From Bacteroidales bacterium (GTDB lineage: Bacteria; Bacteroidota; Bacteroidia; Bacteroidales; F082), in the NCBI GenBank assembly GCA_017965765.1, contig JAGCPJ010000074.1, positions 2,272 through 66,271 of the forward strand: a stretch of 64,000 bases of DNA, read 5' to 3'. The notes below the pieces were generated by a model. The model had not been told where the DNA came from and made no database searches. It saw nothing but the letters and a program-made list of their open reading frames with translations. The position numbers were made by a program, and so were the translations under genes. Position 1 is the first letter of the stretch; each line of letters opens with the position of its first letter. Positions 13,160 to 58,859 of this stretch are shown piece by piece.

Positions 13160-14653
13160 ATGGCTGAAAGCAGACTAGGCTCCTTAGCGAAACAAACCGC
13201 CATCTATGGTTTGAGCAGCATCATTGGCAGGTTTTTGAATTACCTGCTGGTGCCCCTTTATACCTACAAAATCGCCGCCGAATCCGGGGGCTATGGCATC
13301 GTTACCAACTTGTATGCCTATACCGCACTGCTCTTGGTCATCCTCACCTTCGGCATGGAAACCACCTTCTTCCGTTTCTCCAACAAAGAAGGTGTCGATC
13401 CCAACAAGGCTTTTTCCACTTCGGGATTGGCGGTGGGACTGGTTGCCTTGGTCTTCGTGGCTTTGGTCAGCCTCTTGCTGCATCCGATTTCCAACGCCCT
13501 GCATTATGCCGAACATCCAGAGTTTGTGGAGATTATGGCCATCATCGTGGCGCTGGATGCCTTCCAAGCCATCCTCTTCGCCCGTCTGCGCTACGAAAAC
13601 AAAGCCATCAAATTTGCCACGCTGAAGCTGCTGTTCATCTTCCTTAATATCGGGATGAACCTGTTTATCTTCCTGGTCGCTCCAGGGCTGAAAGAAAGCC
13701 ATCCCGCACTCATGGGATGGTACGAAAACAGCTATCAGGTCGGTTACATCTTCATCGTCAACCTCATCTGTACGGGCTTGATCACCTTGGGCTTCATCCC
13801 TGAGATCAAAAAGTTGCGCTTTGGCATCGACGGCAAGATGCTGAAAGCGATGCTGAAATACACTTGGCCTTTGCTGCTCTTGGGTCTGGCGGGCATCCTC
13901 AACCAGGTGGCGGACAAGATCTGCTACCGTTTCATTGTTCCCGGGGCAGAAGGCGATGTGCAATTGGGTATCTACGGCGCCTGTGTGAAGATAGCTATGA
14001 TCATGGCGATGATCACCCAGGCTTTCCGTTACGCCTACGAGCCTTTCGTCTTTGGTGGCAAGCGCGATACTGCTGACAAGGAAACCCAGGCCAAGGTGAT
14101 GAAATATTTCATCATCTTCACCCTGTTCGCCTTCCTTGCCGTGGTGATGTACATGCCCATCCTGAAGCACATCATCAAGAACGACTATTGGGAAGGTCTG
14201 CGCGTGGTGCCCATCGTGATGATGGCCGAGATCTTCATGGGCATCTATTTCAACCTCTCGTTCTGGTATAAGCTCATCGACCAGACTTGGTGGGGTGCCG
14301 TTTTTTCCGCCATTGGCTGTATCGTGCTGTTGGCCATCAACTTCATTTTTGTGCCCAAATACGGCTACATGGCTTGTGCCTGGGGCGGTTTCGCGGGCTA
14401 TGGCACCTGCATGGTGTTGTCGTTCCTCGTGGGCCAGAAAAAGGCTCCGATACCCTATAATTTGAAATCCGCTTTCCTCTATTTCGCCATTGCCATTGCC
14501 TTGTTCTTTGCCCAGAAATACATCCACATTGAAAGCACGATTTGGACCTTGGTGATCAACACGATGTTGCTGCTGGTTTTTGTGGCGGTTATTTGCGTGG
14601 TTGAGAAGGACCTGATAAAAGGGGTGATGGGGAAGCTGAGAGCTAAGAGCTGA
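13160..14653 (+). CDS. MOP-superfamily oligosaccharide/polysaccharide flippase (Wzx-like)
   Basis: 497 aa with about 14 TM helices. N-terminus LAKQTAIYGLSSIIGRFLNYLLVPLYT is typical of Wzx-like flippases. The last ~6 codons and the stop lie inside an AGCTRAG heptamer array. Confidence 0.75.
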   Translation: MAESRLGSLAKQTAIYGLSSIIGRFLNYLLVPLYTYKIAAESGGYGIVTNLYAYTALLLVILTFGMETTFFRFSNKEGVDPNKAFSTSGLAVGLVALVFVALVSLLLHPISNALHYAEHPEFVEIMAIIVALDAFQAILFARLRYENKAIKFATLKLLFIFLNIGMNLFIFLVAPGLKESHPALMGWYENSYQVGYIFIVNLICTGLITLGFIPEIKKLRFGIDGKMLKAMLKYTWPLLLLGLAGILNQVADKICYRFIVPGAEGDVQLGIYGACVKIAMIMAMITQAFRYAYEPFVFGGKRDTADKETQAKVMKYFIIFTLFAFLAVVMYMPILKHIIKNDYWEGLRVVPIVMMAEIFMGIYFNLSFWYKLIDQTWWGAVFSAIGCIVLLAINFIFVPKYGYMACAWGGFAGYGTCMVLSFLVGQKKAPIPYNLKSAFLYFAIAIALFFAQKYIHIESTIWTLVINTMLLLVFVAVICVVEKDLIKGVMGKLRAKS

Positions 14654-14663
14654 GAGCTGAAAG
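14634..14663 (+). repeat. heptamer array AGCTGAG/AGCTAAG x4.3
   Basis: agctgag agctaag agctgag agctgaa ag. It spans the flippase stop codon (14651-14653). Confidence 0.9.
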
Positions 14664-14685
14664 TTAAATCTAATTAAACGAATTT

Positions 14686-14715
14686 TTGAATCTTGAAATC
14701 TTTGAATCTTGAAAT
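14686..14715 (+). repeat. 7/8-nt array TTGAATC/TTGAAATC x4
   Basis: ttgaatc ttgaaatc tttgaatc ttgaaat. It ends exactly at the dut ATG (14716). Confidence 0.85.
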
Positions 14716-15153
14716 ATGAAATTAAAAATAGTCAATGAATCGAACAATCCACTGCCAGCGTATGAGACCCAAAACTCGGCTGGAATAGACTTGCGCGCCT
14801 ACCTGCCGGAAGGCCCGGTCACTTTGAACCCGATGCAGCGTTTTCTGGTGCCGACGGGTCTTTACATGGAGATCCCCGAAGGTTACGAGGGACAGGTGCG
14901 ACCCCGCAGCGGCCTGGCCATCAAGAGTGGTATCACCGTGTTGAACACCCCAGGTACCATCGATGCAGACTACCGGGGACAGGTGTGCGTGATTCTGATC
15001 AACCTGTCCAACCAGCCATTCGTGATCAACAGCGGCGACCGCATCGCCCAGCTGATCATCGCCCGTTGTGAACAAGTAGAACCTGTGCAGGTGGACATCT
15101 TGTCGGAAACGGAACGCGGTGCAGGAGGATTTGGACATACGGGAAAGCGATGA
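14716..15153 (+). CDS. dut: dUTP diphosphatase
   Basis: 145 aa with motifs [21 protein letters not shown] and GGFGHTG. Confidence 0.95.
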
Positions 15154-15197
15154 AACGGAAAACGGAGAACGGAAAACGGAAAACGGAGAACGGAAAA
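15152..15197 (+). repeat. GGARAAC heptamer array, single arm (6.5 units)
   Basis: gaaacgg aaaacgg agaacgg aaaacgg aaaacgg agaacgg aaaa. It fills the whole spacer between the dut stop (TGA 15151-15153) and the next ATG (15197). Confidence 0.95.
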
Positions 15198-16837: not shown

Positions 16838-17400
16838 AACGGAGAACGGAGAACGGAAAACGGAAAGTTGAGAACGGATTATTTTCCGTTCTCCGTTTTC
16901 CGTTTTCCGTTTTCTTGTTGTTGCTCTTGCTGACCGTCGCCTGTACCTCCAAGAAGAAAACCGTCTCGCCGATGGCGCATGCCAAGGACTATACCTGGAT
17001 GAGTGCTAAGGTAAACGGAGAACTGAGCACGGAAAACGGAGAAAATGTCCGTTTCACCGGGTTGCTCCGAATGCATCGCGACAGTACGGTGTGGCTTTCG
17101 GTCTCTGCATTCATGGGGGTGGAAAACGCCCGCATCTTGGTGACCAACGACTCCGTGACGATGCTCAACCGGGTCAACCAGACCTATCTGGCCGAACCCA
17201 TCTCGAGCCTAATGGAAACCCATCAGGTACCCTCTTTGCAAGAACTCCAGTCCCTGCTGCTTGGCAATGGCAGCAGCGACCATCTGGAACTTCACTGGGC
17301 CCCCTATACCGCCAAGATCCAATACGAAGACATCCATTGGGACGAGCCGACCACCTTCCCCATGAAAATCAACAAAAAGTACGAAAGGGTGAAATTATGA
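16834..17400 (+). CDS. DUF4292-like (LolB-fold) lipoprotein
   Basis: 188 aa with lipobox LLLLLTVAC. It holds the conserved position between the TPR gene and the M23 peptidase. Its first ~27 codons are encoded by a heptamer palindrome, and its ATG overlaps the upstream stop (ATGA). Confidence 0.6.
   Translation: MKRRTENGKRKVENGLFSVLRFPFSVFLLLLLLTVACTSKKKTVSPMAHAKDYTWMSAKVNGELSTENGENVRFTGLLRMHRDSTVWLSVSAFMGVENARILVTNDSVTMLNRVNQTYLAEPISSLMETHQVPSLQELQSLLLGNGSSDHLELHWAPYTAKIQYEDIHWDEPTTFPMKINKKYERVKL
16836..16914. repeat. GGARAAC heptamer palindromic element (both arms)
   Basis: The left arm is gaaacgg agaacgg agaacgg aaaacgg aaagttg agaacgg. The loop is attatt. The right arm is ttccgtt ctccgtt ttccgtt ttccgtt ttc. 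Confidence 0.95.
17013..17055 (+). repeat. degenerate GGARAAC-type array inside CDS
   Basis: aaacgg agaactg agcacgg aaaacgg agaaaat gtccgtttc encodes NGELSTENGENVRF. Confidence 0.5.
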
Positions 17401-18653: not shown

Positions 18654-18656
18654 AAA

Positions 18657-18673
18657 ATGCGGAATGCGGAATT
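18657..18673 (+). repeat. heptamer array ATGCGGA x2.4
   Basis: atgcgga atgcgga att. It begins 4 nt after the M23 stop codon. Confidence 0.7.
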
Positions 18674-21900: not shown

Positions 21901-23367
21901 TTCACCACCGACCTCTGTTTGCCCGATGAAATGTGCGCAATCAACTACAGCTTCACCGACCAATACGATGACAGCTGGAACCAAGCATACATGAACATTG
22001 TGGATGCAACAACAGGAGAAGTGCTTTACGAACTGACCATGCCCGATGTCACTGGACCTTACGAAGGTTCCTTCAACGTTTGCGACGGTCGCGAGATCCA
22101 ATTCGTTTGGGTGAGCGGAAACTATCCTAGAGAATGTGGATACACCTTCACTCACAATGGCGAGGTCATCCTTGAAAAAGCTACCAATTCAGCAGCTCCC
22201 GAAGCAGGTGTTTGCTTCACCTACAATGTGGACTGCGGCTTCCCCACCATCTCTATGACCATCGAAGCTCACAACGGTGAGAAAGGTCACTACTACCTCA
22301 TTACCTCACCCATCGGTAACATTCTACCTTCTGCTGTGGAAGGCATGATTGCCGCCGATGAAGAAGATTACGACCTCTATATGTTCAGCCAGATTCCTGA
22401 CGCTGAAGGCAACGAATGGCTCAACTTCAAGGCTAATGAGTTCGCCGAACTCGAAGTCCACAAGGCTTACCTCTATGCCAGCAAGAACGGCACCACCCTC
22501 GTCTTCGACGCTTCCAACATCGACACTGAATTCTACGACTATCCGGATACGGATGTTGATCTGGAATATGTTGACGGCGCTGAATTTGCAGGCGTCAACC
22601 TCGTGGGTAACCCCTTCCCGGGAGGCGCTACTGTTGCCAGAGCTTTCTACACCCTTATGAATGACGAAGAATTTGTGCCTCAGGCCGCTTATAGCGAGAT
22701 TGCATGTGCGCAAGGCATCGCCGTCGTCGCAGAAGGCGCTGACGAAACAGTGCGTTTCATCTGGTCCGGTAACTTTGATTTTGACAAGAGCGCCAATGCC
22801 GCCCTCAACGTCACCCAGAACGGCAAACTCATCGACCGCGCCATCATGTCCTTCGGCGGCAACGATCTGCGCAAGGTCCAGCTCAACTCCAACCACACCA
22901 AGGTCTATATGCCCGTCAACGGCATGGACTGCGCTGTGGCCAGCGTGGAAAGCTTCGGCGAGATGCCTGTCAACTTCAAGGCTGAAAATGACGGCACCTA
23001 CACCCTCAACTTCACCAGCGAGGCTGTCAACTTCAGCTACCTGCACCTCATCGACAATATGACCGGTGCCGAGGTTGACCTCCTTGCCAACCCGACTTAC
23101 AGCTTCGAGGCTAAGAGCAGCGACTACGCTTCACGCTTCAAACTGGTGTTCGCCACGGGCAACAACAGCGAGAGCAGCGAGTTCGCTTTCGTGAGCAACG
23201 GCAACATCATCGTCAACGGCGAGGGCACCCTCCGCGTCATCGACATGACCGGCCGCGTCATTGCCGCTGAGCAAATCAACGGTGTCAGCAACATCAAACT
23301 GAATGCCGCCGCCGGCGTGTATGTGCTCCAACTCAACGACAAGACTCAGAAGATCGTCATTAAATAA
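18931..23367 (+). CDS. very large T9SS-secreted surface protein (Fn3 repeats, choice-of-anchor-J-like and GEVED-like modules, T9SS C-terminal domain)
   Basis: 1478 aa with signal peptide MKKSLLSLVLICFALLGVAKAQ. It has repeated CxxPxxLxxxxxTxxxAxxxW...YxxxVxAxC Fn3-like units. The C-terminal beta-sandwich ends GVYVLQLNDKTQKIVIK. Confidence 0.85.
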   Translation: MKKSLLSLVLICFALLGVAKAQQTVTIGDLASATNNSNFPMNSLYNYSYSQQIYTADEINMAGTITSITIWMYGNENLYEMPFDIYMVETDKDAFSSKTDWVTVTSDDIVYSGSVTVHNTEAEAYTFELSTSFNYTGVGNLLIAFNNTTGQWKSGLNGMVFGAAGDPVRAIYAIQDSGAYDPTAPTFTANATTNIKNVIELDITPAGSPTCEKPSNLMVSDITADEATCTWESEVGSYYFEWKKTSDEAWIGNPTNYNEYTLTELESNTTYNVRVKAVCDTDLESGYRTASFTTANACAAPTDLQITDVTESSATLSWTAGYQETEWTVKYKKSTDTEYMEETINGTPTITLSGLNSCASYDVQVYNCENYISGNFITAAGIPLVEEFGTINVPAGWARYNTLLTDDVLNGTTALTSQNGGWHCSASNGVFDSHAHVNIYGNSCKYWLVTPTLPMEDNVQLTFDMALTKYSGNIQPIDNTLGEDDRFVVLITTDGGTTWEILREWNNTGSEYVYNDIVCSAIGEPVAIDLSSYAGQTIAVAFYGESTVSESGSDNNLHIDNVSIDYIPACAKPTGLAAADVLPHQATIIWTADATAWQVQLNDEDPIDVNEATYTFENLDPETTYTVKVRANCSGTYSDWTNAVSFTTTIACPVPEYLSAVEDGLDAYVSWGIVLGTDWEVALSTDPDADPAENIVATLEDPDETVYSVFDLDLGDYYFWVRAYCGPEDGYSQWEGPVSVHIGYCEPRPTSRDGKGITKVLFGMGDDMVTNVDETYGLPAASPFYGDYSSMVGAVQAGVESEILITYATGSSNVYSYGTIIWVDWDNSLSFEDSEIVYTGMSDQGSGGVPEVLEATLTAPADQPVGDYRMRIAGADSYFDSYINGSATANHSACFTSSYAVCHDYTLRVLEAPSCLIPTGVTYSSSGTEATISWTSDAEAWNMRLNGVEVDDVITNPYILTGLELGTLYSVEVQADCGDNGTSEWTNAVSFTTDLCLPDEMCAINYSFTDQYDDSWNQAYMNIVDATTGEVLYELTMPDVTGPYEGSFNVCDGREIQFVWVSGNYPRECGYTFTHNGEVILEKATNSAAPEAGVCFTYNVDCGFPTISMTIEAHNGEKGHYYLITSPIGNILPSAVEGMIAADEEDYDLYMFSQIPDAEGNEWLNFKANEFAELEVHKAYLYASKNGTTLVFDASNIDTEFYDYPDTDVDLEYVDGAEFAGVNLVGNPFPGGATVARAFYTLMNDEEFVPQAAYSEIACAQGIAVVAEGADETVRFIWSGNFDFDKSANAALNVTQNGKLIDRAIMSFGGNDLRKVQLNSNHTKVYMPVNGMDCAVASVESFGEMPVNFKAENDGTYTLNFTSEAVNFSYLHLIDNMTGAEVDLLANPTYSFEAKSSDYASRFKLVFATGNNSESSEFAFVSNGNIIVNGEGTLRVIDMTGRVIAAEQINGVSNIKLNAAAGVYVLQLNDKTQKIVIK

Positions 23368-23409
23368 ACGGAAAACGGAGAACGGAAAACGGAAAATTTT
23401 CCGTTCTCC
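23368..23409. repeat. GGARAAC heptamer element, asymmetric hairpin
   Basis: aacgg aaaacgg agaacgg aaaacgg aaaa|ttttccgttctcc. It starts at the base after the TAA stop. Confidence 0.9.
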
Positions 23410-23681: not shown

Positions 23682-25331
23682 TCAAAACCCTTCCAGCTGC
23701 ATCGTCACCGTGGGGATGAGCAATAATGCCCCGACGATGATCAGCACCAAGATGAACTTCCAGATGAAACGCACCCATTTTTCCCATGGGATGCGGGCCA
23801 CACCCAAGGTGGCAATGAGCACCCCAGAGGTTGGGGTGATCATGTTCGTGAAACCATCACCGAACTGGAAGGCCATGACCGTGGTCTGACGTGAGATATC
23901 AATCAAGTCGCTGAAGGGCGCCATGATCGGCATGGTGATGGCCGCCTTGGCCGAACCCGACGGAATCACGATATTGATCAAGGTCTGGATGCCGTACATG
24001 ATTTCCGTGGAAGCAATGGCTCCCAGGTTGTTCATCGATTTCGACAAACCATAGAGAATGGTGTCGATGACCCCACCGTCCTGTAACACGATGACGATGC
24101 CGGCCGCCAGTCCCACGACCACCGCCGCCGAAAGGATATCCCCCATGCCTTCGATGAACAACTTCGCGATCTCACTCGCGCTTTTGTTGATGCTGAGACC
24201 GCTACACACGCCCATGAACAGGAAAAGCGTGGCAATTTCCATGATGTACCAGTCGTACCCCAACACGCCGATGATCAGGTAATAAACCGTGCCGAACAGC
24301 ATCGTCAGGACGAAATACGGCACCGCCTTCCGTAAGGCAAAGAAGCCAATCAAGGCAAACAATCCCGCACCGATGGGCAACAAGGGTAGGGTAGTGGCAC
24401 TGTTCCCAACCTTCAACGTAGTCATGGGATAGCGAATCGCGCAAAAGAGCAGTAGGGCGGTGATGGCGGCGTAAACCCACCAGGAAACGGAAAACGGAGA
24501 ACGGAAAACGGATAATTCTTCGTTCTCCGTTCTCCGTTCTCCGTTTTCCGTTCTCCTCCAGTACTCATCATCCTCATAAACAATCGACGCCGTCGGGTTC
24601 TTCTTCACCTTGTTGGCATACCATAGGACGAAGGCGATGCCGATGATGGTCAGGATCACCCAACAGACCGCCCGGTAGCCGATGCCCGAAAACAACGGGA
24701 TCTCCGCGATCCCTTGCGCAATGCCAATAGTAAAGGGGTTGAGCATGGCCCCGGAGAAACCAATATGCGCCGCCACATACACCATGCAGACACCCACGAT
24801 GGAGTCGTAACCCATGGAGATGGCCAAAGGAATGATGATCAACGTAAAAGCAATGGTTTCCTCGCTCATCCCAAACACCGAACCAAACAAGCTGAAGAGA
24901 ATCATCACCAAGGTAATGATGATGTTGTTCACACCGATCTTGCGAATCAGCTTGTTGTGTTCCAATCGCTTGGTAATTCGTAAAAACGCCATGATGCCCG
25001 TGTCGATGGCCTTGCTTTTGTTCATGATCCAAAAAGCACCGCCGATGATCAAGATGAACACGATGATGCTGCTTTGCTTCACGAAACCCTTGAACAAGGC
25101 CGAGAACACCTGCCAGGTCTGCGGTTCAGCATGGAAGTCTGCCGCATACGCCTCAGGTAGCTGGTCTTGGTAGTAAAACGTCATCACCGTTTCTCCTCCA
25201 ACCTGCTCGGAGACATATTTCCCGGGCTTGATGAACCACGTCATCATGGCGGCGATGAGGATGCAACAAAAAACAATGACAAAAGTATGGGGTACCTTGC
25301 GTTTTTTCATGGCGGTATTTATGATTTGCAA
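23682..25331 (-). CDS. YfcC / C4-dicarboxylate anaerobic carrier family transporter
   Basis: 549 aa, polytopic. The N-terminus KVPHTFVIVFCCILIAAMMTWFI is typical of the YfcC family. It carries an in-frame heptamer palindrome ([25 protein letters not shown]). Confidence 0.75.
   Translation of the reverse strand: MQIINTAMKKRKVPHTFVIVFCCILIAAMMTWFIKPGKYVSEQVGGETVMTFYYQDQLPEAYAADFHAEPQTWQVFSALFKGFVKQSSIIVFILIIGGAFWIMNKSKAIDTGIMAFLRITKRLEHNKLIRKIGVNNIIITLVMILFSLFGSVFGMSEETIAFTLIIIPLAISMGYDSIVGVCMVYVAAHIGFSGAMLNPFTIGIAQGIAEIPLFSGIGYRAVCWVILTIIGIAFVLWYANKVKKNPTASIVYEDDEYWRRTENGERRTENEELSVFRSPFSVSWWVYAAITALLLFCAIRYPMTTLKVGNSATTLPLLPIGAGLFALIGFFALRKAVPYFVLTMLFGTVYYLIIGVLGYDWYIMEIATLFLFMGVCSGLSINKSASEIAKLFIEGMGDILSAAVVVGLAAGIVIVLQDGGVIDTILYGLSKSMNNLGAIASTEIMYGIQTLINIVIPSGSAKAAITMPIMAPFSDLIDISRQTTVMAFQFGDGFTNMITPTSGVLIATLGVARIPWEKWVRFIWKFILVLIIVGALLLIPTVTMQLEGF
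24484..24556. repeat. GGARAAC heptamer palindromic element inside CDS
   Basis: The left arm is gaaacgg aaaacgg agaacgg aaaacgg. The loop is ataattcttc. The right arm is gttctcc gttctcc gttctcc gttttcc gttctcc. Confidence 0.95.
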
Positions 25332-27035: not shown

Positions 27036-27062
27036 AATTCGTTTAATTCGTATAATTCGCCG
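27036..27062 (+). repeat. 9-nt array AATTCGNNN x3
   Basis: aattcgttt aattcgtat aattcgccg. It begins 2 nt after the stop codon. Confidence 0.7.
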
Positions 27063-44130: not shown

Positions 44131-44138
44131 CAAAAATA
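44131..44138 (-). promoter_or_regulatory. -7 box TAnnTTTG (TATTTTTG), internal to the array
   Basis: The plus strand reads caaaaata. It lies in the only sizeable gap (40 nt) of the array, ~20 nt upstream of the MBOAT-3 ATG. Confidence 0.4.
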
Positions 44139-44150
44139 ACAATTCTATCG

Positions 44151-45509: not shown

Positions 45510-45518
45510 GGCGTCGGC

Positions 45519-47048
45519 TTAGAATCTGAAATAGATGAAGGGGCTGAAACGGGAAGCATTCAAGGCGGCGATGCAGAAGAGGAAGGCTGCCACGCTGAGG
45601 ATCCAAACAAAGATGTGCTGCCTGTCGGTGAATGCGTGGTTATACACCCAGTCCTGCAGTTTCCTGCCTGCTTTGGTGAGGGTGATGAAAGAAAATATGG
45701 CGGCCAAGAGCAGGGTGACGTAGAACCTGGGATTGAGGCTGAAAGGTAACGGCGCAAACTGGAAGGCAAACATCCTGCCGATGAAAGTCCAAGCCAAGTC
45801 GAGCTTCTCTATACGGAAGACCATCCACGTCACCGTGACGAAGAGAAAGGTGAGGAGAACGGAAAACGGAGAACGGAGAACGGAGAGTTTTCCGTTTTCC
45901 GTTCTCCGTTTTCCGTTGAATACCTTGTCCAAGCAGATGAAAAGCCCGTGCAAGGCGCCCCAAACCACGAAATTCCAGCTGGCACCATGCCAGAGGCCAG
46001 AGAGCAGGAAGCAGATCCAGAGGTTGAGGTAGGTGCGTGCCTTGCCTTTGCGGTTGCCGCCTAAGGGGAGGTAGAGGTAGTTCTTGATGAAGGCGCCCAA
46101 AGTGATGTGCCAGCGGCGCCAGAACTCCGTGATCGACTTGGAGACGTACGGGTTGTTGAAGTTCTCCGGGAATTTGAACCCCATAATACGGCCCAAGCCG
46201 ATGGCCATGTCGGAATAGCCCGCGAAATCGAAGTAGATCTGGAAGGTATAGGCCAGTGCCACCATCCAGGCGGTGGTGGAGTCAAGCATGGCAATGCGTT
46301 CCGTGAGGGTTGCCAGACGCTCTGCGCTGATCGCCGATAGGTTAGCGGGACCCAAGATGGCATCGACTTCCATCCCGATGACATCGGCGATGAGGATCTT
46401 CTTGCAAAGGCCGATGACAAAACGGTAGAACCCTTGCAGACGGTCTGCGTACCCTGACTCGCGATGGCGGATCTGGTCGGCTACGTCGCAATAGCGGACG
46501 ATGGGACCCGCGATGAGCTGGGGAAACATCGTGATGTAGAGCATGTAGTCGCTGAGCTTTTTCATGGGCTGGTTCACCCCCCTGTAAGTGTCCAAGGTGT
46601 AGGTGACACTTTGGAACGAGAAGAACGAAATGCCAATGGGAAGGAGAATCTTGGAGAACGGAGAACGGAGAACGGAAAACTGAGAATAACCGAGACGGCC
46701 TAAAAGCCAAAATAGGTTTTCCGTGAAGAAGTTCGCGTACTTGTAGAAGACCAACAATCCGATGGGAATGGCAATGGACAGCCCACAAAGGATCTTGGAG
46801 AATGGGGAGTTTTCCGTTTTCCGTATTCCGTTTTCCGTTTCCTTTGCTGCTACCATGGCTTTCACCAAGTAGAAATTGGCAATGGTGGAGACAACAAGCT
46901 GGATCAGGAAATCGGGCGCACCCCAGGCGTAGAACAGCAAGGAAGCGAAGAGCAAGGCGTAGTTTCTGGCCTTCCTGGGCAACAGAAAGTACAACAGGAA
47001 GAATCCTGGCATGAAGTACAGTAGAAATACATTGCTGCTAAATACCAT
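45519..47048 (-). CDS. MBOAT-family membrane O-acyltransferase, paralog 4
   Basis: 509 aa. N-terminus MVFSSNVFLLYFMP, with FWRRWHITLG and LSGLWHGASW. It has three in-frame heptamer insertions. Confidence 0.85.
   Translation of the reverse strand: MVFSSNVFLLYFMPGFFLLYFLLPRKARNYALLFASLLFYAWGAPDFLIQLVVSTIANFYLVKAMVAAKETENGIRKTENSPFSKILCGLSIAIPIGLLVFYKYANFFTENLFWLLGRLGYSQFSVLRSPFSKILLPIGISFFSFQSVTYTLDTYRGVNQPMKKLSDYMLYITMFPQLIAGPIVRYCDVADQIRHRESGYADRLQGFYRFVIGLCKKILIADVIGMEVDAILGPANLSAISAERLATLTERIAMLDSTTAWMVALAYTFQIYFDFAGYSDMAIGLGRIMGFKFPENFNNPYVSKSITEFWRRWHITLGAFIKNYLYLPLGGNRKGKARTYLNLWICFLLSGLWHGASWNFVVWGALHGLFICLDKVFNGKRRTENGKLSVLRSPFSVLLTFLFVTVTWMVFRIEKLDLAWTFIGRMFAFQFAPLPFSLNPRFYVTLLLAAIFSFITLTKAGRKLQDWVYNHAFTDRQHIFVWILSVAAFLFCIAALNASRFSPFIYFRF
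45855..45917. repeat. GGARAAC heptamer palindromic element inside CDS (27/30 arm matches)
   Basis: gagaacggaaaacggagaacggagaacggagag|ttttccgttttccgttctccgttttccgtt. It encodes NGKRRTENGKLSVLRSPFSV. Confidence 0.95.
46653..46687 (+). repeat. GGARAAC heptamer array, forward single arm, inside CDS
   Basis: ggagaac ggagaac ggagaac ggaaaac tgagaat. It encodes SQFSVLRSPFS on the minus strand. Confidence 0.9.
46810..46842 (-). repeat. GGARAAC heptamer array, reverse single arm, inside CDS
   Basis: ttttccgttttccgtattccgttttccgtttcc. It encodes KETENGIRKTENSP on the minus strand. Confidence 0.9.
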
Positions 47049-47050
47049 GG

Positions 47051-48457
47051 CTATTCTTTTTGTTGTTCTTTGAGGTATTGCATCACTGCGCTGGACCTGC
47101 GGGTGGGAATGCTGTCTTTCAAGGCGGGAAGGAAGATGTGGGGCGAATGGGTCACCACATACTCAGCTTCGTGGACCACCGTGGTGTCAAGGGGAATCTG
47201 ATACTCTTCCGCACGCCGTTGCAAGGCCGCTAACCACGCCTTGTTTTGCTTGATGTTTTCAACCAGATCTGTTTTGATTTGCCGTAGTTCCTCATCGTCG
47301 TAACACAGTCTCGGCAACAGTCGGGTGGAGAAGCCGTTGCTCATCTTGTAGAGTTGCGTCGTGCTGTAGGCGAGCATCACAAAGTCGGCATCCAGCACTT
47401 CTTTGACGAGGTCGAGTTCGGAGGTGTTGTGGTAGGGCTCTTCAAAATAGACGGTGCTGTTGTAGTACCAGTAGGGTGTTGCGCCGAAGATTTCCTTGAA
47501 CGGGGTGTGGTTGAGGATGTTCCAGTAGAAGGAGTCGCCAATGGTGATGAGGACGGGACGCTTGGCCGTGGGGTCTTCAATCACCTCGGTCTTGGCAAAA
47601 TAGTTCGGTGCGGTCTTCAAAGGCCGGATGAGGTTCATCAGTTGCTCCAAGTCGTTGTCGGGATCCACCGTCTGGACATATTTCTCTCCGATGCTGAAAT
47701 TCAACAGGTTGACATGGCCCAATGCCTCCATGTAGCGTACCAGGCTGTCGGCGACATACATGGCGGCCAGGTTGCTCCAGTGGGTTCCGGTCTGGGGAAA
47801 GAGCGGGAAGTCAGCGGTGTCTTTCATCTGGAGGAACCACTGTCCTACATCGATGTAGTTGACGCCCATTTCGGAGAACTTCTTGCCGTAGTAGTCGTAT
47901 GCGGTGATCTCTTTTTCACGGAAGTATTTCGTGTTTTCAGGCAGGTGTTCCGGATAGATGGCTTCCTTCCCGGGCAGCAGCAGCACAAAGAGATGGGTGC
48001 CGTAGGCTTCCAGGATATGTTGGATCTGGTAAAGCATGAGCGCTTCGGTGTCGAACTGTTTGGCCATGTCGATTGCATCTTTCGAATAGCGATGGGCATT
48101 GCCTTGGTAATATTCTTCCACACTCATCGCCTCGTAGTACCATTGGTCGTCGCTGATGTAGATGCCTTTGTTTTTCAGGTTCGAGTAGTGGAACAGGTCC
48201 CATTGGGTCTGATTGTATAGCCTGGTCAGCGGTTCCCGGAAACCGTAATGGTTCTGGAGATGGCGCTCCACGCCTTGCTGAAAACGTTGGTTTTTCCAAT
48301 GCTCGTACGTCAATGTCGGGATAGGCTGCTCAGCGACGACACCTTTCAAGCTGCGAAACTTGATGATGTGGAGTTGCTGCAAGGGCAAGGCGATCACCAC
48401 CACGGCGGTGAGGATGAATAATATGCGTTTGGTACGTGTATTCATGCGCTTTATCAT
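47051..48457 (-). CDS. AlgJ/AlgX-like permuted-SGNH protein (type B), first gene of the array
   Basis: 468 aa. The AlgJ-like N-region is LQNHYGFREPLTRLYNQTQW, with TGTHW and TIGDSFYW. The C-terminal module is NKAWLAALQRRAEEYQIPLDTTVVHEAEYV. An alternative start at 48445 (MNTRTKRILF) is suggested by the promoter box at 48459-48466. Confidence 0.65.
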   Translation of the reverse strand: MIKRMNTRTKRILFILTAVVVIALPLQQLHIIKFRSLKGVVAEQPIPTLTYEHWKNQRFQQGVERHLQNHYGFREPLTRLYNQTQWDLFHYSNLKNKGIYISDDQWYYEAMSVEEYYQGNAHRYSKDAIDMAKQFDTEALMLYQIQHILEAYGTHLFVLLLPGKEAIYPEHLPENTKYFREKEITAYDYYGKKFSEMGVNYIDVGQWFLQMKDTADFPLFPQTGTHWSNLAAMYVADSLVRYMEALGHVNLLNFSIGEKYVQTVDPDNDLEQLMNLIRPLKTAPNYFAKTEVIEDPTAKRPVLITIGDSFYWNILNHTPFKEIFGATPYWYYNSTVYFEEPYHNTSELDLVKEVLDADFVMLAYSTTQLYKMSNGFSTRLLPRLCYDDEELRQIKTDLVENIKQNKAWLAALQRRAEEYQIPLDTTVVHEAEYVVTHSPHIFLPALKDSIPTRRSSAVMQYLKEQQKE

Positions 48458-48458
48458 G

Positions 48459-48466
48459 CAAAAATA
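48459..48466 (-). promoter_or_regulatory. -7 box TAnnTTTG (TATTTTTG) for the MBOAT/AlgJ array
   Basis: The plus strand reads caaaaata, in the divergent 52-nt spacer shared with the U32 peptidase gene. Confidence 0.45.
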
Positions 48467-48497
48467 GAAAATAATCTTACGAAACGTTTAAAAACCG

Positions 48498-48505
48498 TAC
48501 CTTTG
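48498..48505 (+). promoter_or_regulatory. -7 box TAnnTTTG (TACCTTTG)
   Basis: It lies immediately upstream of the ATG at 48510/48516, implying a very short leader or leaderless transcript. Confidence 0.4.
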
Positions 48506-48509
48506 CTTC

Positions 48510-50264
48510 ATGAAAATGACTCAGATAGAACTACTTTCCCCGGCCAAGAACCTTGAAGTGGGTCTGGCTGCCATTGACCATGGTGCCGATGCGGTGTATA
48601 TCGGGGGTCCCGCCTTCGGCGCTCGCGAAAAGGCGGGAAACAGCATCGAGGATATCGAAAAGCTTTGCCAGCACGCACATTTGTTCAATGCCAAGGTCTA
48701 TGTCACCTTGAACACGTTGTTGTATGAGCGAGAGTATGAGCCTGCCCGTCAGCTGGCATGGGATTGCTGGAATGCGGGCGTGGATGCCCTCATCGTCCAG
48801 GACTTGAATCTGCTGAATCTCGACCTGCCGCCCATCCCTCTTCATGCCAGCACCCAATGCGACAACCTCACCGTGGAACGGGTAAAGGAGTTGGAACAGC
48901 TTGGTTTTGAGCAAGTTGTTCTTGGCCGCGAACTGACCATCGATCAGATACGGGAGATCCGAAACCAGACCACGGTACCGCTGGAGTTCTTCGTCCACGG
49001 TTCCTTGTGTGTCAGCCATAGCGGCCAGTGTTACCTGAGTGAGTACATTGGCAACCGCTCCGCCAACCGTGGGGCTTGTGCCCAGCCTTGTCGCCTTCCT
49101 TGGGACCTGCTTGGAGTTAGGAGTGAGGAGTTAGGAGTGAGGAGTAAGGACAATTGGATAACAATAATCAAAGGCAAGCACCTGCTTTGCTTGAAAGACC
49201 TGAACAACAGTGCGCATCTGGAAGAGCTGCTGGATGCGGGGATCACCAGTTTCAAGATCGAAGGTCGGCTGAAGGAAGCCGACTATGTGAAGAATATCAC
49301 TGCCTATTACCGCCAGCAGCTGGATGCCATCTTTGCGCGCAGGCCTGAATATGGACAGGCCTCGTGGGGGCATTGTACTTATGACTTTGAAGTCAATCCC
49401 GAGAAGTCTTTCAACCGTGGGTTCACGGATTATTTCATCCATGGGAGACAGCCCAACATTGGGTCGCCCGATACTCCCAAATCGATGGGCGAGTACCTCG
49501 GGGAGGTGAAATGGTGCAACTCGGTTCAGATGGAAATCCCCACCGATAAAGTGATGCATAATGGTGATGGGCTTTGTTTCCTGAAGGATGGGGAGCTGAT
49601 CGGTATTCGTGCCGATGTGGTCAATGGCCACAAGGTGTCGTGCAACCGTCCTCATGGCGCCTACCGTGGTGCGAGAATCTATCGCAACTACGACATTGAA
49701 TGGCAACGTCAGGTCGAGGCTTCCAAGGGCAATCGCAAGATCGACTTGGAGTTGGCGTTGGAAGAAACCGAGGAAGGGTTCGAGTTGAACGGAAAACGGA
49801 GAACGGATAACGGAGAATTTTCCGTTTTCCGTGTTCCGTTTTCAGTTTCCAAGATTCCCGCAACTAATCCTGAAAAGGCTACCGAGAACATCCGTAAGAA
49901 GTTGATGCAGTGGGGCGACACGATCTATCAGCCTGTCAGCTTGGAGCTTCGCTTCTCCCAGCCTTACCTGATTCCGGCTTCTGTGTTGGGTGAGATGAAA
50001 CGTGGGCTGGTGGAGAAACTCAAGGGGGAGTGGAAAACGGAAAACGGAGAACGGAAAACTAGCCATGGACAGGAACCATTTTCCGTTCTCCGTGCTCCAC
50101 TTTCCGTTCTCATGACTTGTCACCATTGCATCCGTTATGCCAACGGGATGTGCTTGAAAACGCACCCTGCCTACACGGGACCATTGTTCATCCGCAACGG
50201 CGAGAACACCTTCCGTCTGGAGTTTGATTGCAAGCAATGTATCATGAAAATATATTCGGAATAA
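48510..50264 (+). CDS. peptidase U32 family protein
   Basis: 584 aa. EFFVHGSLCVSHSGQCYLS matches the U32 signature E-x-F-x2-G-[SA]-[LIVM]-C-x4-G-x-C-x-[LIVM]-S. It carries three in-frame heptamer-repeat insertions. Confidence 0.8.
   Translation: MKMTQIELLSPAKNLEVGLAAIDHGADAVYIGGPAFGAREKAGNSIEDIEKLCQHAHLFNAKVYVTLNTLLYEREYEPARQLAWDCWNAGVDALIVQDLNLLNLDLPPIPLHASTQCDNLTVERVKELEQLGFEQVVLGRELTIDQIREIRNQTTVPLEFFVHGSLCVSHSGQCYLSEYIGNRSANRGACAQPCRLPWDLLGVRSEELGVRSKDNWITIIKGKHLLCLKDLNNSAHLEELLDAGITSFKIEGRLKEADYVKNITAYYRQQLDAIFARRPEYGQASWGHCTYDFEVNPEKSFNRGFTDYFIHGRQPNIGSPDTPKSMGEYLGEVKWCNSVQMEIPTDKVMHNGDGLCFLKDGELIGIRADVVNGHKVSCNRPHGAYRGARIYRNYDIEWQRQVEASKGNRKIDLELALEETEEGFELNGKRRTDNGEFSVFRVPFSVSKIPATNPEKATENIRKKLMQWGDTIYQPVSLELRFSQPYLIPASVLGEMKRGLVEKLKGEWKTENGERKTSHGQEPFSVLRAPLSVLMTCHHCIRYANGMCLKTHPAYTGPLFIRNGENTFRLEFDCKQCIMKIYSE
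49113..49149 (+). repeat. heptamer array GGAGTTA/GGAGTGA x5.3 inside CDS
   Basis: ggagtta ggagtga ggagtta ggagtga ggagtaa gg. It encodes GVRSEELGVRSKD. Confidence 0.9.
49787..49850. repeat. GGARAAC heptamer palindromic element inside CDS
   Basis: gaacggaaaacggagaacggataacggagaa|ttttccgttttccgtgttccgttttcagtttcc. It encodes NGKRRTDNGEFSVFRVPFSVS. Confidence 0.95.
50030..50111. repeat. GGARAAC heptamer palindromic element with 20-nt loop, inside CDS
   Basis: The left arm is gtggaaaacggaaaacggagaacggaaaa. The loop is ctagccatggacaggaacca. The right arm is ttttccgttctccgtgctccactttccgttctc. It encodes WKTENGERKTSHGQEPFSVLRAPLSVL. Confidence 0.95.
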
Positions 50265-53291: not shown

Positions 53292-53326
53292 GAATTCTTA
53301 CTTCTTACTTCTGTCTCCTGTCTTCT
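53292..53326 (-). repeat. heptamer array (minus-strand AGAAGAC AGGAGAC AGAAGTA AGAAGTA AGAATTC)
   Basis: The plus strand reads gaattct tacttct tacttct gtctcct gtcttct. It begins 9 nt downstream of the carboxyltransferase stop. Confidence 0.8.
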
Positions 53327-55013: not shown

Positions 55014-55892
55014 ATGTCCGAAAGAAGTTCTAGCAAACGTCGGGTAGCCGGATCGTACGCCGTGTCGCTGGTGAGCATCATGCTGGTGCTCTTTCTGTTG
55101 GGTGTGTTCGCCATCCTGATGATGCACGCCCGCAAGCTCTCCAACCACATCAAGGAGAACATCGGCTTCGAGATCGTCATGAACAGCGACGTCAAAGAGG
55201 CCAATATCCTGCGTCTGCAGAAGGAGCTCGATGCCATGCCGGCCGTGAAATCCACGGAATACATCACCAAAGAGGAGGCCATCACACGGCTGAGCGAAGA
55301 CCTCGGCGAGGACTTCCTCGACTGGCTGGGCAACGAGGCCAACCCGCTGCTGCCTTCCATCGACGTGCGCTTCCATGCGGATTACGCCAACAACGACAGC
55401 CTCTCTGTGCTGGAATCGCAACTGCTCGAAAACACAGATGTGAAAGAGGTCTATTACCAGAAATCGCTGGTAGATCTCATCAACAACAATATCCGTAAGA
55501 TCGCTACCGCGTTGATGATCATCAGCCTCATCCTTCTTGTAATCGCCATCGCATTGATACGCAACACGATACGTTTGTCCATCTACTCAAAGCGCTTCAC
55601 CGTGCGCTCCATGCAGCTGGTAGGAGCCACCGAGAGCTTCATCCGTCGCCCCTTCCTCCGCTCGGGCGTGCTGCAAGGTTTCCTCGGAGGACTGCTCGCC
55701 GACCTGCTGCTGGTTGTCATGCTGTATGGCATCTCCAAACGCATCCCTGACCTGACACTCATCCAGGATATCAAGGTGCTGGGAGCGATCTTTGTAGGTA
55801 TCATCGTGCTTGGCGTGGTCCTGGCCTGGTTCTCCACAAGGTCGGCACTGAACAAATTCCTGAAAGCAGACCTGGACAAACTGTATAACTGA
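55014..55892 (+). CDS. ftsX: cell-division FtsX-like permease
   Basis: 292 aa. It has one N-terminal TM, a periplasmic domain and three C-terminal TMs in the FtsX arrangement. Confidence 0.8.
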   Translation: MSERSSSKRRVAGSYAVSLVSIMLVLFLLGVFAILMMHARKLSNHIKENIGFEIVMNSDVKEANILRLQKELDAMPAVKSTEYITKEEAITRLSEDLGEDFLDWLGNEANPLLPSIDVRFHADYANNDSLSVLESQLLENTDVKEVYYQKSLVDLINNNIRKIATALMIISLILLVIAIALIRNTIRLSIYSKRFTVRSMQLVGATESFIRRPFLRSGVLQGFLGGLLADLLLVVMLYGISKRIPDLTLIQDIKVLGAIFVGIIVLGVVLAWFSTRSALNKFLKADLDKLYN

Positions 55893-55916
55893 AAACGGAA
55901 AACGGAAAACGGAAAA
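55891..55916 (+). repeat. GGARAAC heptamer array, single arm (3.5 units)
   Basis: gaaaacgg aaaacgg aaaacgg aaaa. It overlaps the ftsX stop codon (TGA 55890-55892). Confidence 0.9.
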
Positions 55917-56990: not shown

Positions 56991-57724
56991 TGTTCTACGT
57001 AGAAGAAGGTACGGTGTTTCTCATCGACAAGCCCATCGACTGGACTTCGTTCGATACGGTGAACTTCATCCGTTCCCTGTTCATGCGCTTTTATGGCATC
57101 CGTAAACTCAAAGTGGGTCATGCAGGAACACTGGATCCACTGGCTACCGGACTGCTCATCCTCTGCGCAGGTCCCATGACCAAACAGATCGAAGACTTCC
57201 AAGCTCAAGTCAAGACCTATACAGGCACGATGATCCTCGGACAGACCACCCCGACCTTCGACCTGGAAAGCGACCCCGACAACTTCTATCCTACCGAAGG
57301 CATCACCGCCGAACAGATCGATCAAGCACGCCAACAGTTCATTGGCGACATCAAACAATATCCTCCCAAATACTCCGCCATCAAAATCAAAGGGAAACGC
57401 GCCTTCGACTATGCACGCTCCGACGAAGAAATAGAACTCAAGGCGCGCGACATCCATATCGACGATTTCAAAGTCAACATGGATCGCTTTCCGGAATTGG
57501 ACTTCGAAGTGACCTGCAGCAAAGGGACGTATATACGAAGCCTCGCCAACGACTTCGGAAAAGCCCTGAACAACGGCGCCTGCCTGAAAACCCTCCGTCG
57601 CACCCGTATCGGCGAATTCCATGTGGAAGATGCTTGGCAGCTCGAAGACCTCAAACAAGCCATCATTGACTCTGGAGAGGAGTATAGGGAATGGAAAAAA
57701 CAGAACGAAATAAGTAAAACTTGA
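56990..57724 (+). CDS. truB: tRNA pseudouridine(55) synthase
   Basis: Start set at [15 protein letters not shown] (in frame with the track ORF from 56936; it overlaps the uppP stop as TGATG). The catalytic block is KVGHAGTLDPLATGLL. Confidence 0.9.
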   Translation: MFYVEEGTVFLIDKPIDWTSFDTVNFIRSLFMRFYGIRKLKVGHAGTLDPLATGLLILCAGPMTKQIEDFQAQVKTYTGTMILGQTTPTFDLESDPDNFYPTEGITAEQIDQARQQFIGDIKQYPPKYSAIKIKGKRAFDYARSDEEIELKARDIHIDDFKVNMDRFPELDFEVTCSKGTYIRSLANDFGKALNNGACLKTLRRTRIGEFHVEDAWQLEDLKQAIIDSGEEYREWKKQNEISKT

Positions 57725-57743
57725 CAAAACTTGTTTCGCGTAT

Positions 57744-57751
57744 TATCTTTG
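57744..57751 (+). promoter_or_regulatory. -7 box TAnnTTTG (TATCTTTG)
   Basis: tatctttgcag lies 22 nt upstream of the ATG at 57773. Confidence 0.5.
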
Positions 57752-57772
57752 CAGCGTTAAAACCTTGTTGAG

Positions 57773-58837
57773 ATGAAATTATCACAATTCAAGTTCAATC
57801 TGCCACAAGAGCTGATTGCATCTTATCCTGCCAAAAACCGTGACGAAGCCCGCCTGATGGTGCTGAACCGCAGAGCCCAAACCATTGAGCACCGCGTGTT
57901 TAAGGACTTGGTGGATTATGTTAAGGACGGCGACGTCTTCGTGCTGAACAATACCAAGGTGTTTCCCGCCCGCCTCTATGGCGAAAAGGAAAAGACAGGC
58001 GCCAAGATCGAGGTGCTGCTGCTGCGCGAACTGAACCACGAGAGCCGCCTGTGGGACGTCCTCGTCGATCCCGCCCGTAAGATCCGTATCGGTAACAAAC
58101 TTTACTTCGGCGAAGGCGAAGAACTGGTGGCCGAAGTCATCGACAATACCACGACCCGTGGCCGTACCCTGCGCTTCCTCTTCGATGGCACCTACGAGGA
58201 ATTCAAGAAGACCATCTTCTCCCTGGGACACACCCCACTGCCCAAAGAGATCCTCGACCGTAGAGAGGACAAAAACGTGGTTCCCGAAGACGCCGAGGAC
58301 TTCCAAACCATCTATGCCAAGGTGGAAGGCGCCGTTTCCGCTCCTACCGCAGGCATGCACTTCAGCAAGATCCTCATGAAACGCCTTGAACTCATCGGAG
58401 CCTCCTTCGCAGAACTGACACTGCATCCTGGCATGGGCAACTTCCGTGATATCGAAGTGGAAGACCTGACCAAACATAAATGCGACTCGGAAGAGATGGT
58501 CGTGGATCAAACCTGCTGCGATATCGTCAACGAAGCCAACAAACGCCATAACAACGTCTTCGCCGTGGGTACCACCACCATGAAAGCCCTGGAAACTGCC
58601 CAGACCATCGAAGGGAAGATCAAGCCATTCAACGGCTGGACCAACAAGTTCATCTTCCCGCCTTATACATTTTCCGTGGCCAATTGCATGATCACCAACT
58701 TCCACCTGCCCAAGTCACCCATGATGATGGAAGTGGCTGCCTTCGCAGGCTATGACTTCCTCATGAAAGCCTACAAAGAAGCCGTCAACGAGAAATACCG
58801 CTTCTTTACTTACGGAGACGCGATGCTGATTATATGA
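57773..58837 (+). CDS. queA: S-adenosylmethionine:tRNA ribosyltransferase-isomerase
   Basis: 354 aa. The N-terminus is [26 protein letters not shown], and the blocks AGMHFS and [10 protein letters not shown] are present. Confidence 0.95.
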
Positions 58838-58859
58838 TTCGGAATTCGGAATTCGGAAT
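58837..58859 (+). repeat. heptamer array ATTCGGA x3.3
   Basis: attcgga attcgga attcgga at. It starts on the last base of the queA stop codon. Confidence 0.85.

Follow-up and report, generated by a model that had tools for sequence, protein, structure and literature searches.

The stretch analysed here (the window) comprises 64,000 nucleotides (nt) of contig JAGCPJ010000074.1 from a Bacteroidales metagenome-assembled genome (MAG; NCBI GenBank assembly GCA_017965765.1; C74:2272-66271 of genome G000 in the numbering used below). The features in question are short tandem arrays, mostly of 7-nt period, that lie on or directly behind the stop codons of many of its genes. The host genome (2.0 Mb in 78 contigs, 51% G+C, 76% complete) was placed by its DcuC orthologues among uncultured rumen and hindgut Bacteroidales MAGs, some of which are labelled 'Candidatus Limimorpha' or F082. 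The nearest species representatives were only 74-79% identical in DNA over a 5.5-kb stretch, and filled and empty insertion sites could therefore not be reconstructed at their junctions. Open reading frames (ORFs) were called with a purpose-made ORF and hexamer gene caller (1,538 genes, 90% coding), and the boundaries of dut, the TPR gene, the DUF4292 gene and the M23 peptidase gene were the same in a separate gene call made on an ENA scaffold of independent assembly. Tandem Repeats Finder recovered the arrays of the window at the coordinates given below; genome-wide, arrays were merged into 278 elements, and distances were counted from the base after the predicted stop. Public DNA and 'RNA' runs were stored as Logan unitigs, which are broken at every array and yielded only the M23 indels described below and flat depth. 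Pfam confirmed nine of the ten genes concerned (dUTPase, TPR, a fn3/GEVED giant protein, S46, FtsX, M23, QueA, carboxyltransferase and M49) and gave no match for the tenth, a 497-aa 'flippase' ORF. A search of Rfam across the window returned two tRNAs only and nothing at the arrays.

A sequence-only reading of the window had listed ten arrays that begin near or overlap a stop codon, and all ten junctions were read in the sequence at the positions claimed. Eight of the ten are heptamer arrays whose first base falls no more than 2 bases to either side of the stop's end, or which overlap the stop; unless noted, all lie on the forward strand. In the flippase ORF, 3.9 units of AGCTRAG (14634..14660) span the stop (TGA 14651-14653), and every unit holds TGA or TAA. 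Behind dut, a single arm of (AACGGAR)6.4 (15153..15197) runs from the last base of the stop (TGA 15151-15153) to the ATG of the TPR gene at 15197, so that the entire spacer is array; it is predicted to be unstructured (-4.6 kcal/mol). The TPR gene (TGA 16835-16837) is followed directly by a palindromic element, (AACGGAR)n then (TTYTCCG)n (16838..16914), that folds into a hairpin of -48.1 kcal/mol (z = -8.0) and also lies within the called 5' end of the DUF4292 lipoprotein ORF (ATG 16834). The M23 peptidase gene carries a weak array, 2.4 units of AATGCGG (18656..18672), 2 nt past its stop (TAA 18651-18653). In the gene of the 1478-aa protein of type IX secretion system (T9SS) type, (AAACGGA)4.4 (23366..23409) overlaps the stop (TAA 23365-23367) and has a short inverted arm behind it (hairpin of -19.7 kcal/mol). 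The S46 peptidase gene (TAA 29293-29295) is followed after 1 nt by a single arm of (AAACGGA)4.4 (29297..29327; unstructured, -2.7 kcal/mol) that bears the 'AGAA' core of the master sequence described below. In ftsX, an unstructured single arm of (GAAAACG)3.7 (55891..55916) overlaps the stop (TGA 55890-55892), and in queA (ATTCGGA)3.3 (58837..58859) begins at the last base of the stop (TGA 58835-58837). On the reverse strand, the carboxyltransferase gene (reverse-complement TAA 53335-53337) has a purine-rich array, AGAAGAC AGGAGAC AGAAGTA AGAAGTA in the sense direction (53295..53325), 9 nt downstream of its stop. The M49 peptidase gene has no heptamer array; 2 nt past its stop (TGA 27032-27034) lie 2.7 units of ATTCGTWTA (27036..27059), which is weak and of 9-nt period. 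The units had been called sequence-unrelated, which overstates the case: they do differ, but five of the ten rows are arrays of a single family (GGARAAC), and the core CGGAA of that family recurs in two more (GGAATGC, GGAATTC).

Across the whole genome the excess was specific to period 7. At three or more copies, 173 arrays of period 7 were found, against 15, 5, 3, 10, 4, 0, 0 and 3 for periods 4, 5, 6, 8, 9, 10, 11 and 12, respectively. A looser threshold gave 291 arrays (AAAACGG 113, AATGCGG 45, AATTCCG 23, AACGGAG 22, ACTCCTC 18, AACTCCT 10, and others), and GGA was present in more than 80% of units. The modal array was 4 units long, about 28 nt, in the GGAAAAC, GGAATGC and GGAATTC families. 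The 278 merged elements comprised 112 in intergenic DNA, 86 that overlap a gene end and 80 within genes. Their starts formed a sharp peak at the stop (39 at -2, 16 at -1, 10 at 0 and 18 at +1), with a mode that covers the last two bases of the codon. In all, 67 elements started at -3 to 0, 37 at +1 to +4, and 124 within -3 to +10; with 1,460 stop-flanked spacer ends in 187 kb of intergenic DNA, the positions of this last range account for no more than 10.9% of the latter. Array density was 2.07 per kb in convergent spacers, 1.03 and 0.94 in co-directional ones and 0.19 in divergent ones, and thus tracked the number of flanking stops. The genome-wide comparison proposed along with the original list gave a clear result in co-directional spacers, where 76 of 119 arrays lay within 3 nt of the stop and only 13 within 3 nt of the start; uniform placement gave 24.1 ± 3.4 stop-proximal arrays, with a maximum of 36 in 2000 trials. 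Chance low complexity had been judged improbable at the outset, and it is opposed both by the specificity of the excess to period 7 and by a placement far beyond what any shuffle produced. The same rule holds genus-wide: in 1.58 Mb from 21 other genomes, 32 of 103 arrays fell within -3 to +10 of a stop (ORFs of at least 120 aa), with arrays about half as dense.

The arrays are linked to the functional stop and not to a DNA word, since the stops beside them are used as in the genome at large (TAA/TGA/TAG, 62/31/8% beside arrays vs 57/33/10% genome-wide). On the same ground, targeting by stop type or by microhomology was rejected. The mode at -2 is largely the overlap to be expected between purine-rich units and the RA of stop codons. 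Orientation was strongly biased, with 64 purine-rich and 6 pyrimidine-rich sense strands among 70 clear stop-adjacent cases. Stop usage, orientation and the cross-species sites described below all support the initial suggestion that arrays of one period and one placement are tied to gene 3' ends. Two-copy heptamers by stops were of the same families, which told against newborn duplications of random sequence there. Phase variation was discarded as a rationale: the arrays lie after the stop, and a change in copy number cannot shift the upstream frame.

Folding of the 120 nt past the stop divided 122 arrays into 38 hairpins, 22 partial hairpins and 62 single arms. Single arms were essentially unstructured (-0.8 to -4.6 kcal/mol), whereas paired arms gave -20 to -50 kcal/mol with z-scores of -6 to -13. 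Two forms are thus shown. In one, a single purine-rich arm of about four units, free of structure, occupies the space up to the next cistron or terminator; in the other, inverted arms pair in a hairpin. The single arms were mostly intercistronic, and the ATG of the next ORF followed within 20 nt in 23 of the 37 that have an identifiable downstream ATG. Other arrays sit between the stop and a classical terminator, with no gap on either side: they abut the stop at one end and the terminator stem or A-tract at the other. Among the 38 array-bearing convergent spacers (8 flush at both ends, 24 at one end), many are a single hairpin that reads stop, purine arm, loop, pyrimidine arm, stop. Spacers measured without their array had a median length of 46-52 nt and array-free spacers one of 41-46 nt, as though arrays were added at the stop-proximal end. 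In a scan of the window for terminator-like sites the paired arms were the top matches, and several single arms preceded a separate classical terminator. Structure at the transcript 3' end, one of the roles first proposed, therefore fits the paired arms (38 of 122 clear hairpins) but not the 62 single arms.

The same gene ends carry arrays in other species, with different units. Between the rnfA stop and its terminator lie ACGGAWA (this genome and G050), ACTGATA, AGTGAGG, GGTGAAA, ATTCATA or a degenerate AGTTAAK, depending on the species; these arrays start 0-4 nt past the stop and reach the terminator stem, and other species have 8-33 nt of unique spacer instead. The ferritin stop gave the same pattern across species. 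At the dut stop, a heptamer array was flush in eight of nine further relatives, drawn from at least six unit families. In three of these families the unit visibly holds the last codon and the stop of the gene itself (AGA-TAA and the unit RAGATAA in G230 and G145, AAGCTGA in G047, TTGAAAR in G011), which indicates that local sequence was duplicated in situ. The flippase array (14634..14660) is of this type, and in the host genome the heptamer that holds the stop agreed with the unit at 4 or more of 6 positions in 20.6% of cases, where the null gave 7.3%. Local slippage also exists between strains, as the M23 array varies by +7 and +17 nt (at 18653-18660).

For the dominant family, copying between loci is shown in addition to local slippage. 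Four-unit GGARAAC arrays had the variant order A-G-A-A in 16 of 29 cases, where about 3 were expected. A 27-nt core, CGGAAAACGGAGAACGGAAAACGGAAA, was present in 63 copies with at most 1 mismatch, each preceded by ..AA and each in a variable register relative to the stop. The 21-mer GGAAAACGGARAACGGAAAAC occurred 74 times in this genome and had no copy in the 150 other family genomes searched, which include 28 of the same genus; G050 and G226 do carry the dominant family at single sites.

This master sequence flanks a single small gene. The only PF05635 match in the genome (C52:8907-9218) is a 123-aa ORF that also matches TIGR02436 at 1e-29 and PDB 2RLD, an uncharacterised protein deposited with five chains. 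The ORF lies in a cassette (G000 C52:8749-9291; L207 1328-1888) between two convergent protein-coding genes, with both arms bounded by stops. The left arm, GGGAAAC GGAAAAC TGAAAAC GGAAAAC TGAAAAC, includes the TGA of the upstream gene and is separated from the PF05635 ORF by an AT-rich, promoter-like stretch. The right arm, TTTTCCG TTTTCCG TTCTCCG TTTTCCG TTTT, runs from the base after the TAA of the ORF to the stop of the convergent gene, and its reverse complement is exactly the A-G-A-A master core. Genes of this family were found in 57 of 61 genus genomes, at 1-12 copies in those 57. A heptamer array lay within 250 nt of the match at 16 of 27 complete loci. The zone next to the matches held 22 arrays in 13.5 kb (1.63 per kb), against 1 in 67.5 kb further out (0.015 per kb; binomial p = 1.5e-16), so that PF05635 genes are enriched about 100-fold for flanking heptamer arrays across the genus. 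At four loci, inverted arms of one unit family stand on both sides of the gene, and in G010 and G031 the arm family (TCTTTAG) is also the array behind the ferritin stop of the same genome. A literature search found no paper that links PF05635 proteins with heptamer repeats, which does not show that none exists.

The arrangement has a precedent in ribosomal RNA genes. Intervening sequences of 23S rRNA genes, which are excised by RNase III, can carry an ORF of about 120 aa that encodes a four-helix-bundle protein (S23p/IVP, PF05635/TIGR02436) between inverted-repeat arms. In the present cassette, too, a PF05635/TIGR02436 ORF occupies the loop between inverted arms able to form a long stem. Unlike those intervening sequences, it lies between protein-coding genes and not in helix 25 or 45, and its arms occur about 100 times without the gene.

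Arrays were not confined to gene ends. About half of those in the window lie away from stops, in frame within genes. Genome-wide, 45 arrays begin 4-75 nt upstream of a stop, so that the ORF reads into the array, and several stops were created within the array by CGG-to-CTG variants; about 35 more are internal and in frame in real genes, among them DcuC, four MBOAT genes and a U32 peptidase gene. In the DcuC transporter gene, on the reverse strand, a palindromic GGARAAC element (24485..24556; hairpin of -50.5 kcal/mol) lies in frame in a variable loop, with no stop adjacency. Close relatives have AGAAGAC, GGAGTTA, AACGGAA or TCACCTC arrays in this loop and distant relatives a non-repetitive one; the heptamer-coded loops are unrelated peptide inserts between the conserved motifs YEDDEYWR and WWVYG (24485-24556 here, about 3770-3830 in L001-L012). 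An array of (TTTTCCG)5 (31220..31254, forward strand), also not stop-adjacent, lies within the part of the ORF from ATG 31157 that likely codes for an N-terminal signal anchor. At least 12 further in-frame arrays of the same families were recovered by Tandem Repeats Finder in the four MBOAT genes and the U32 peptidase gene (34814..50059), among them those at 34814-34874, 35690-35716, 39657-39705, 40565-40590, 43854-43903, 45854-45917, 46653-46686, 46809-46840, 49113-49150, 49788-49848 and 50032-50059.

Several side observations concern these regions. Ten same-strand genes (33114-48466) consist of MBOAT acyltransferases alternating with AlgX/AlgJ-like SGNH proteins, and in-frame heptamer arrays occur in all four MBOAT genes. 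In the ORFs at 16834-17400 and 31157-31300 the ATG overlaps the upstream stop (ATGA), and the heptamer arms encode a basic and hydrophobic signal-peptide or anchor N-terminus; the 188-aa DUF4292 protein from 16834 was called by the independent gene caller as well. Some GGAAAAC arrays contain a 31-nt module, CCCCGAAGGGCTCACCGACCGAAYGGGAGGT, always at the same point, between ..ACGGAA and AAAACGG.. (35710-35749, 39699-39738, 40584-40623 and 43821-43860 in the window; about 20 further copies genome-wide). The module also occurs inside a different repeat that begins GTCATTGCGAG, and it had no match in Rfam. An octamer family, AAATCTTK/AATCTTGA, forms 22 intergenic arrays in sense orientation 8-25 nt upstream of start codons, as at 14681-14715 before the dut ATG at 14716, and may be a promoter or leader element. 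In contigs X6 and X7 of two other metagenomes, position 18819 is joined to 23676 with 10 other letters between, which indicates related strains without the 4.9-kb gene of the 1478-aa fn3/GEVED T9SS-type protein.

We read the arrays as members of a genome-wide class of heptameric simple sequence repeats, partly dispersed from a master sequence that flanks a gene of the intervening-sequence type, and most likely placed by tolerance, to which strand-specific selection is added. This explanation as a whole is given a probability of roughly 45%. Arrays would arise by 7-nt slippage, in some cases by duplication of the heptamer that holds the last codon and stop of a gene, as the dut and flippase units and the M23 variants partly show. 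A few species-specific master sequences would then be copied between loci of one genome, a step that is shown for the dominant family. The dispersed GGARAAC arrays are best taken as gene-less arms of the PF05635 cassette; the association is observed and the causal role inferred. The stop would mark the upstream limit of tolerated sequence, since a unit inserted further upstream shifts the frame or must be tolerated in frame, and a terminator, ribosome-binding region or promoter would already occupy the short spacer further downstream. The purine-rich sense strand may be favoured because the opposite orientation would bring U/C-rich, Rho-loading or hairpin-forming RNA into operons and, where translated, would give a hydrophobic peptide.

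Several results weigh against this explanation. Arrays remained flush to the stop in roomy spacers, in 10 of 19 with at least 150 nt free (0.4 expected) and in 7 of 12 with 80-150 nt free (0.6 expected), and a pure filter for the only free site is thus not sufficient. Octamer arrays were stop-adjacent in only 2 of 22 cases; the placement of the heptamers is therefore family-specific, which argues for function or targeting over neutral accumulation. The dominant family looks young, as it is absent from the 150 sampled relatives, and its youth makes a slow deletion ratchet an unlikely maker of the flush boundaries. The number of PF05635 genes per Mb was weakly correlated with array density (Spearman 0.46, p = 0.035; 21 genomes, no phylogenetic control), and less so once cassette-adjacent arrays were left out (0.40, p = 0.076). 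One genome, G012, has five PF05635 genes and no array in 80 kb, and the host, at 76% completeness, carries a single PF05635 gene alongside four or more unit families. No mechanism ties the PF05635 protein to the arrays; the association is solid, but its direction is not shown. A stop-directed step, or a function at the stop, may thus still be missing from an account by tolerance.

One tentative extension is possible but doubtful. PF05635 proteins and heptamer arrays could form one self-propagating system, in which each protein lineage would recognise its own 7-nt word and, as a pentamer, help arrays of this word to be written, copied or kept immediately after stop codons.

A second possibility, which also seems doubtful to us, is that the arrays are functional RNA modules obliged to start at the stop. 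They could act as a periodic single-stranded platform, with a GGA-type word every 7 nt and about four words, to which an oligomeric RNA-binding protein attaches as the ribosome departs, or as a hairpin with its foot at the stop that sets mRNA 3'-end stability, termination or ribosome release, as REP hairpins close to E. coli stops (within 15 nt) reportedly do. Candidate binders would be the four-helix-bundle protein as a pentamer, an OB-fold protein of the cold-shock or S1 type, or a ring like that of HutP or TRAP. Such a role is consistent with an adjacency that is precise to the base whatever the stop type and spacer length, with the strict strand rule (64 vs 6), and with the division into heptamers at stops and octamers before starts. 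The prevalence of GGA, the mode of four units and the rank of paired arms as the best terminator-like sites of the window point the same way, as does the recurrence of arrays at the dut (eight of nine relatives), rnfA and ferritin ends of species with coding DNA only about 75% identical. CspB is cited in MacGregor (2015; PMC4679880) as binding with one protein per heptamer. Against this, only about 8% of genes bear arrays and many orthologous sites are empty. The units at one site can differ wholly between species, so that a reader would need to co-evolve with them. Unstructured and hairpin states share one position, and identical sequences lie in frame within coding regions. CsrA and HutP were considered as readers of GGA or of triplets spaced by 7 nt and were set aside, as no homologue of either was found in this genome (76% complete). 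For the comparable repeats of Xanthomonas, Rehm et al. (2015; PMC4692102) saw no regulatory effect.

Somewhat less probable, and in our judgement unlikely, is a mobile cassette of the kind formed by repetitive extragenic palindromic (REP) doublets and REP-associated tyrosine transposases (REPIN/RAYT). The arrays would be its non-autonomous copies, the PF05635 gene with its inverted arms the autonomous form, and insertion would be directed to the first bases past the stop or to a feature that coincides with them. Of the insertion-site preference suggested by the sequence-only reading, the copying of a master sequence is borne out; defined ends, target duplications and a transposase were not found. 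The 63 near-identical cores, the 74 copies here against 0 in 150 related genomes, the master sequence around the single PF05635 gene and the strong array enrichment at such genes genus-wide all suit a mobile element. So do the in-frame copies at differing positions of paralogous genes and the 31-nt module at one fixed point within about 20 arrays. By arithmetic, selection could produce the excess at stops unaided only if over 98% of intergenic positions were lethal. Yet the element has no fixed end: its first CGG falls 0 to 4 nt past the stop, in many registers, and target-site duplication was not seen. On these two grounds, a variable left-junction register and no visible target-site duplication, a miniature inverted-repeat transposable element was also rejected. 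We know of no DNA-level feature that marks all three stop codons in frame, nor of any nuclease or recombinase activity in four-helix-bundle proteins, and both points count against a cassette. Some arrays in relatives are moreover plain duplications of local sequence.

The three RAYT-type Y1 transposases have their own, different REPs, which tells against the cassette, and the RAYT/REP system was excluded as the source of the arrays, as no heptamer array lies within 1.5 kb of the three Y1_Tnp genes. These genes lie at C29:45955-46299, C37:4567-4911 and C26:21671-22015, with REP hairpins such as CCGCACCCCATCGGGGTGCCATGTCGGTAG; five tandem REP copies stand downstream of the C26 gene, and such REPs often adjoin heptamer arrays at other loci. 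Only one reverse transcriptase is present, a stand-alone enzyme of the UG26 defence group (G000 C67:31309-32511; PADLOC E = 6e-161). This type (RT_UG26, DRT-type) occurs in 21 of 101 genus genomes. It was rejected as a source because arrays are also present in G010 and G017, which are complete and negative for reverse transcriptase.

It is very improbable that the arrays serve as a readthrough or tailing buffer, or as a three-frame stop device, that makes stop failure or frameshift harmless. The sense translation of the main units is hydrophilic (KTENGKR), as a buffer would have it, and some minor families (AGCTGAG, GGAGTGA, GGAGTTA) and many arrays of relatives hold stop triplets that would be met in every frame within 21 nt. 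The dominant families, however, are stop-free on both strands, and 57% of array-bearing genes, against 21% of other genes, lack a stop in any frame within 30 nt past the stop. No in-frame bias to the next ATG was found (6 of 26), and 45 ORFs already read into arrays. The 57% and the 6 of 26 speak against the buffer that had been among the first candidates. Chance low complexity or an artefact of MAG assembly and gene calling is barely conceivable. In its favour, the MAG has 78 contigs, the Logan unitigs break at arrays and the stops were predicted with a purpose-made caller. Against it, only period 7 shows the excess, the placement is far above any shuffle, the genes are confirmed by Pfam, and the same junctions and gene order recur in the independent ENA scaffold and nine relatives.

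Comparable repeats are known from other bacteria. Mazel et al. reportedly described short tandemly repeated repetitive (STRR) heptanucleotide sequences in heterocystous cyanobacteria in 1990. Palindromic elements of Rickettsia are said (Ogata et al., in 2000) to have a 100-150-nt consensus and to lie in frame in genes as well as between them. The present palindromic repeats are likewise tolerated both in frame and between genes; the Rickettsia elements differ in that they are not tandem 7-mers and have no association with stop codons. According to Liang, Rudd and Deutscher (Mol Cell, 2015), reportedly, about half of the REP-associated genes of E. coli have the REP within 15 nt of the stop, where it stalls ribosomes. 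The REP sequences and bacterial interspersed mosaic elements, including the REPIN-RAYT system (PMC3116915), share with the arrays their place as short extragenic palindromes at gene 3' ends and a repeat family that flanks a single-copy gene thought to spread it. They differ in that here each of the three RAYT genes stands between REPs of its own (..CCCCATCGGGGT..ATCGGTAG..), with no heptamer arrays beside it. The arms here, unlike REPs, are tandem 7-mers of variable number, and one in two stop-adjacent copies is a single arm that forms no hairpin.

Closest are the heptanucleotide repeats themselves. Mrazek et al. (2007) are cited in PMC4679880 for heptanucleotides as the commonest long simple repeats and for polymerase slippage as their suggested origin. 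STRR and other long simple sequence repeats resemble the present arrays in that several unrelated 7-nt units lie in tandem, dispersed through the non-coding DNA of one genome (PMC4679880, PMC4692102). They belong to another phylum, and no base-level link to stops or to a flanked gene was reported for them. The class of stop-proximal, sense-strand heptamers is already published at coarser resolution by Rehm et al. (2015, PLoS One, PMC4692102), for (GGGAATC)n of Xanthomonas and (GGGGAYT)n of Nostoc; neither for those repeats nor for the present ones has a function been found. Those repeats and ours share the heptamer excess over other long simple repeats, the intergenic location, the scarcity between divergent ORFs, the stop-proximal sense bias, the four-unit mode, tandemly inverted pairs and host genes of all functions. 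Conserved sites vary in length and sequence between species in both, here at the dut, rnfA and ferritin stops and in the DcuC loop. The units here (GGARAAC, GGAATKC, GGAGTKA, AGAAGAC and others) differ in having GG at most, so that the G-quadruplex rationale for four units does not apply; a G-quadruplex explanation was rejected on this ground and because AGAAGAC, ACTGATA and ATTCATA have no G tract. Several families per genome, single-base adjacency, many in-frame copies, the tie to PF05635 and the rumen Bacteroidales setting further distinguish the present arrays. The TAACTGA direct repeats of marine Beggiatoaceae, cyanobacteria and five Bacteroidetes (MacGregor 2015; PMC4679880) are likewise heptamers of 2-6 units in co-directional spacers, strictly oriented, in some cases overlapping the upstream stop, and without canonical ribosome-binding sites. 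They cluster just upstream of starts and hold stops in three frames, whereas the arrays here hug the stop and are mostly stop-free; the start-proximal placement is matched here by the separate octamer family.

In many bacteria, no long simple repeat is commoner than the heptanucleotide kind, which has been known since 1990 (as STRR); surveys in 2007 and 2015 yielded neither a mechanism nor a function. New here are the single-base adjacency to the stop, a species-specific family that is copied within the genome, and a master sequence around the only PF05635 gene of that genome, together with the roughly 100-fold enrichment of such genes for flanking arrays across the genus. Arrays of about four units, purine-rich in the sense strand, that start at the first untranslated base give a clean view of the placement rule, and two testable handles are available: the copied, species-specific master, and its identity with the arms of one small gene. 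Stop-free arrays extend or fuse ORFs and call for caution with gene callers. If PF05635 proteins and arrays did form one self-propagating system, it would explain the heptanucleotide excess in bacterial intergenic DNA, including that of Xanthomonas and cyanobacteria. A causal link between gene and repeat would identify what lies behind a feature common to many genomes; without such a link, the arrays would still be useful markers of where selective constraint on a gene stops.

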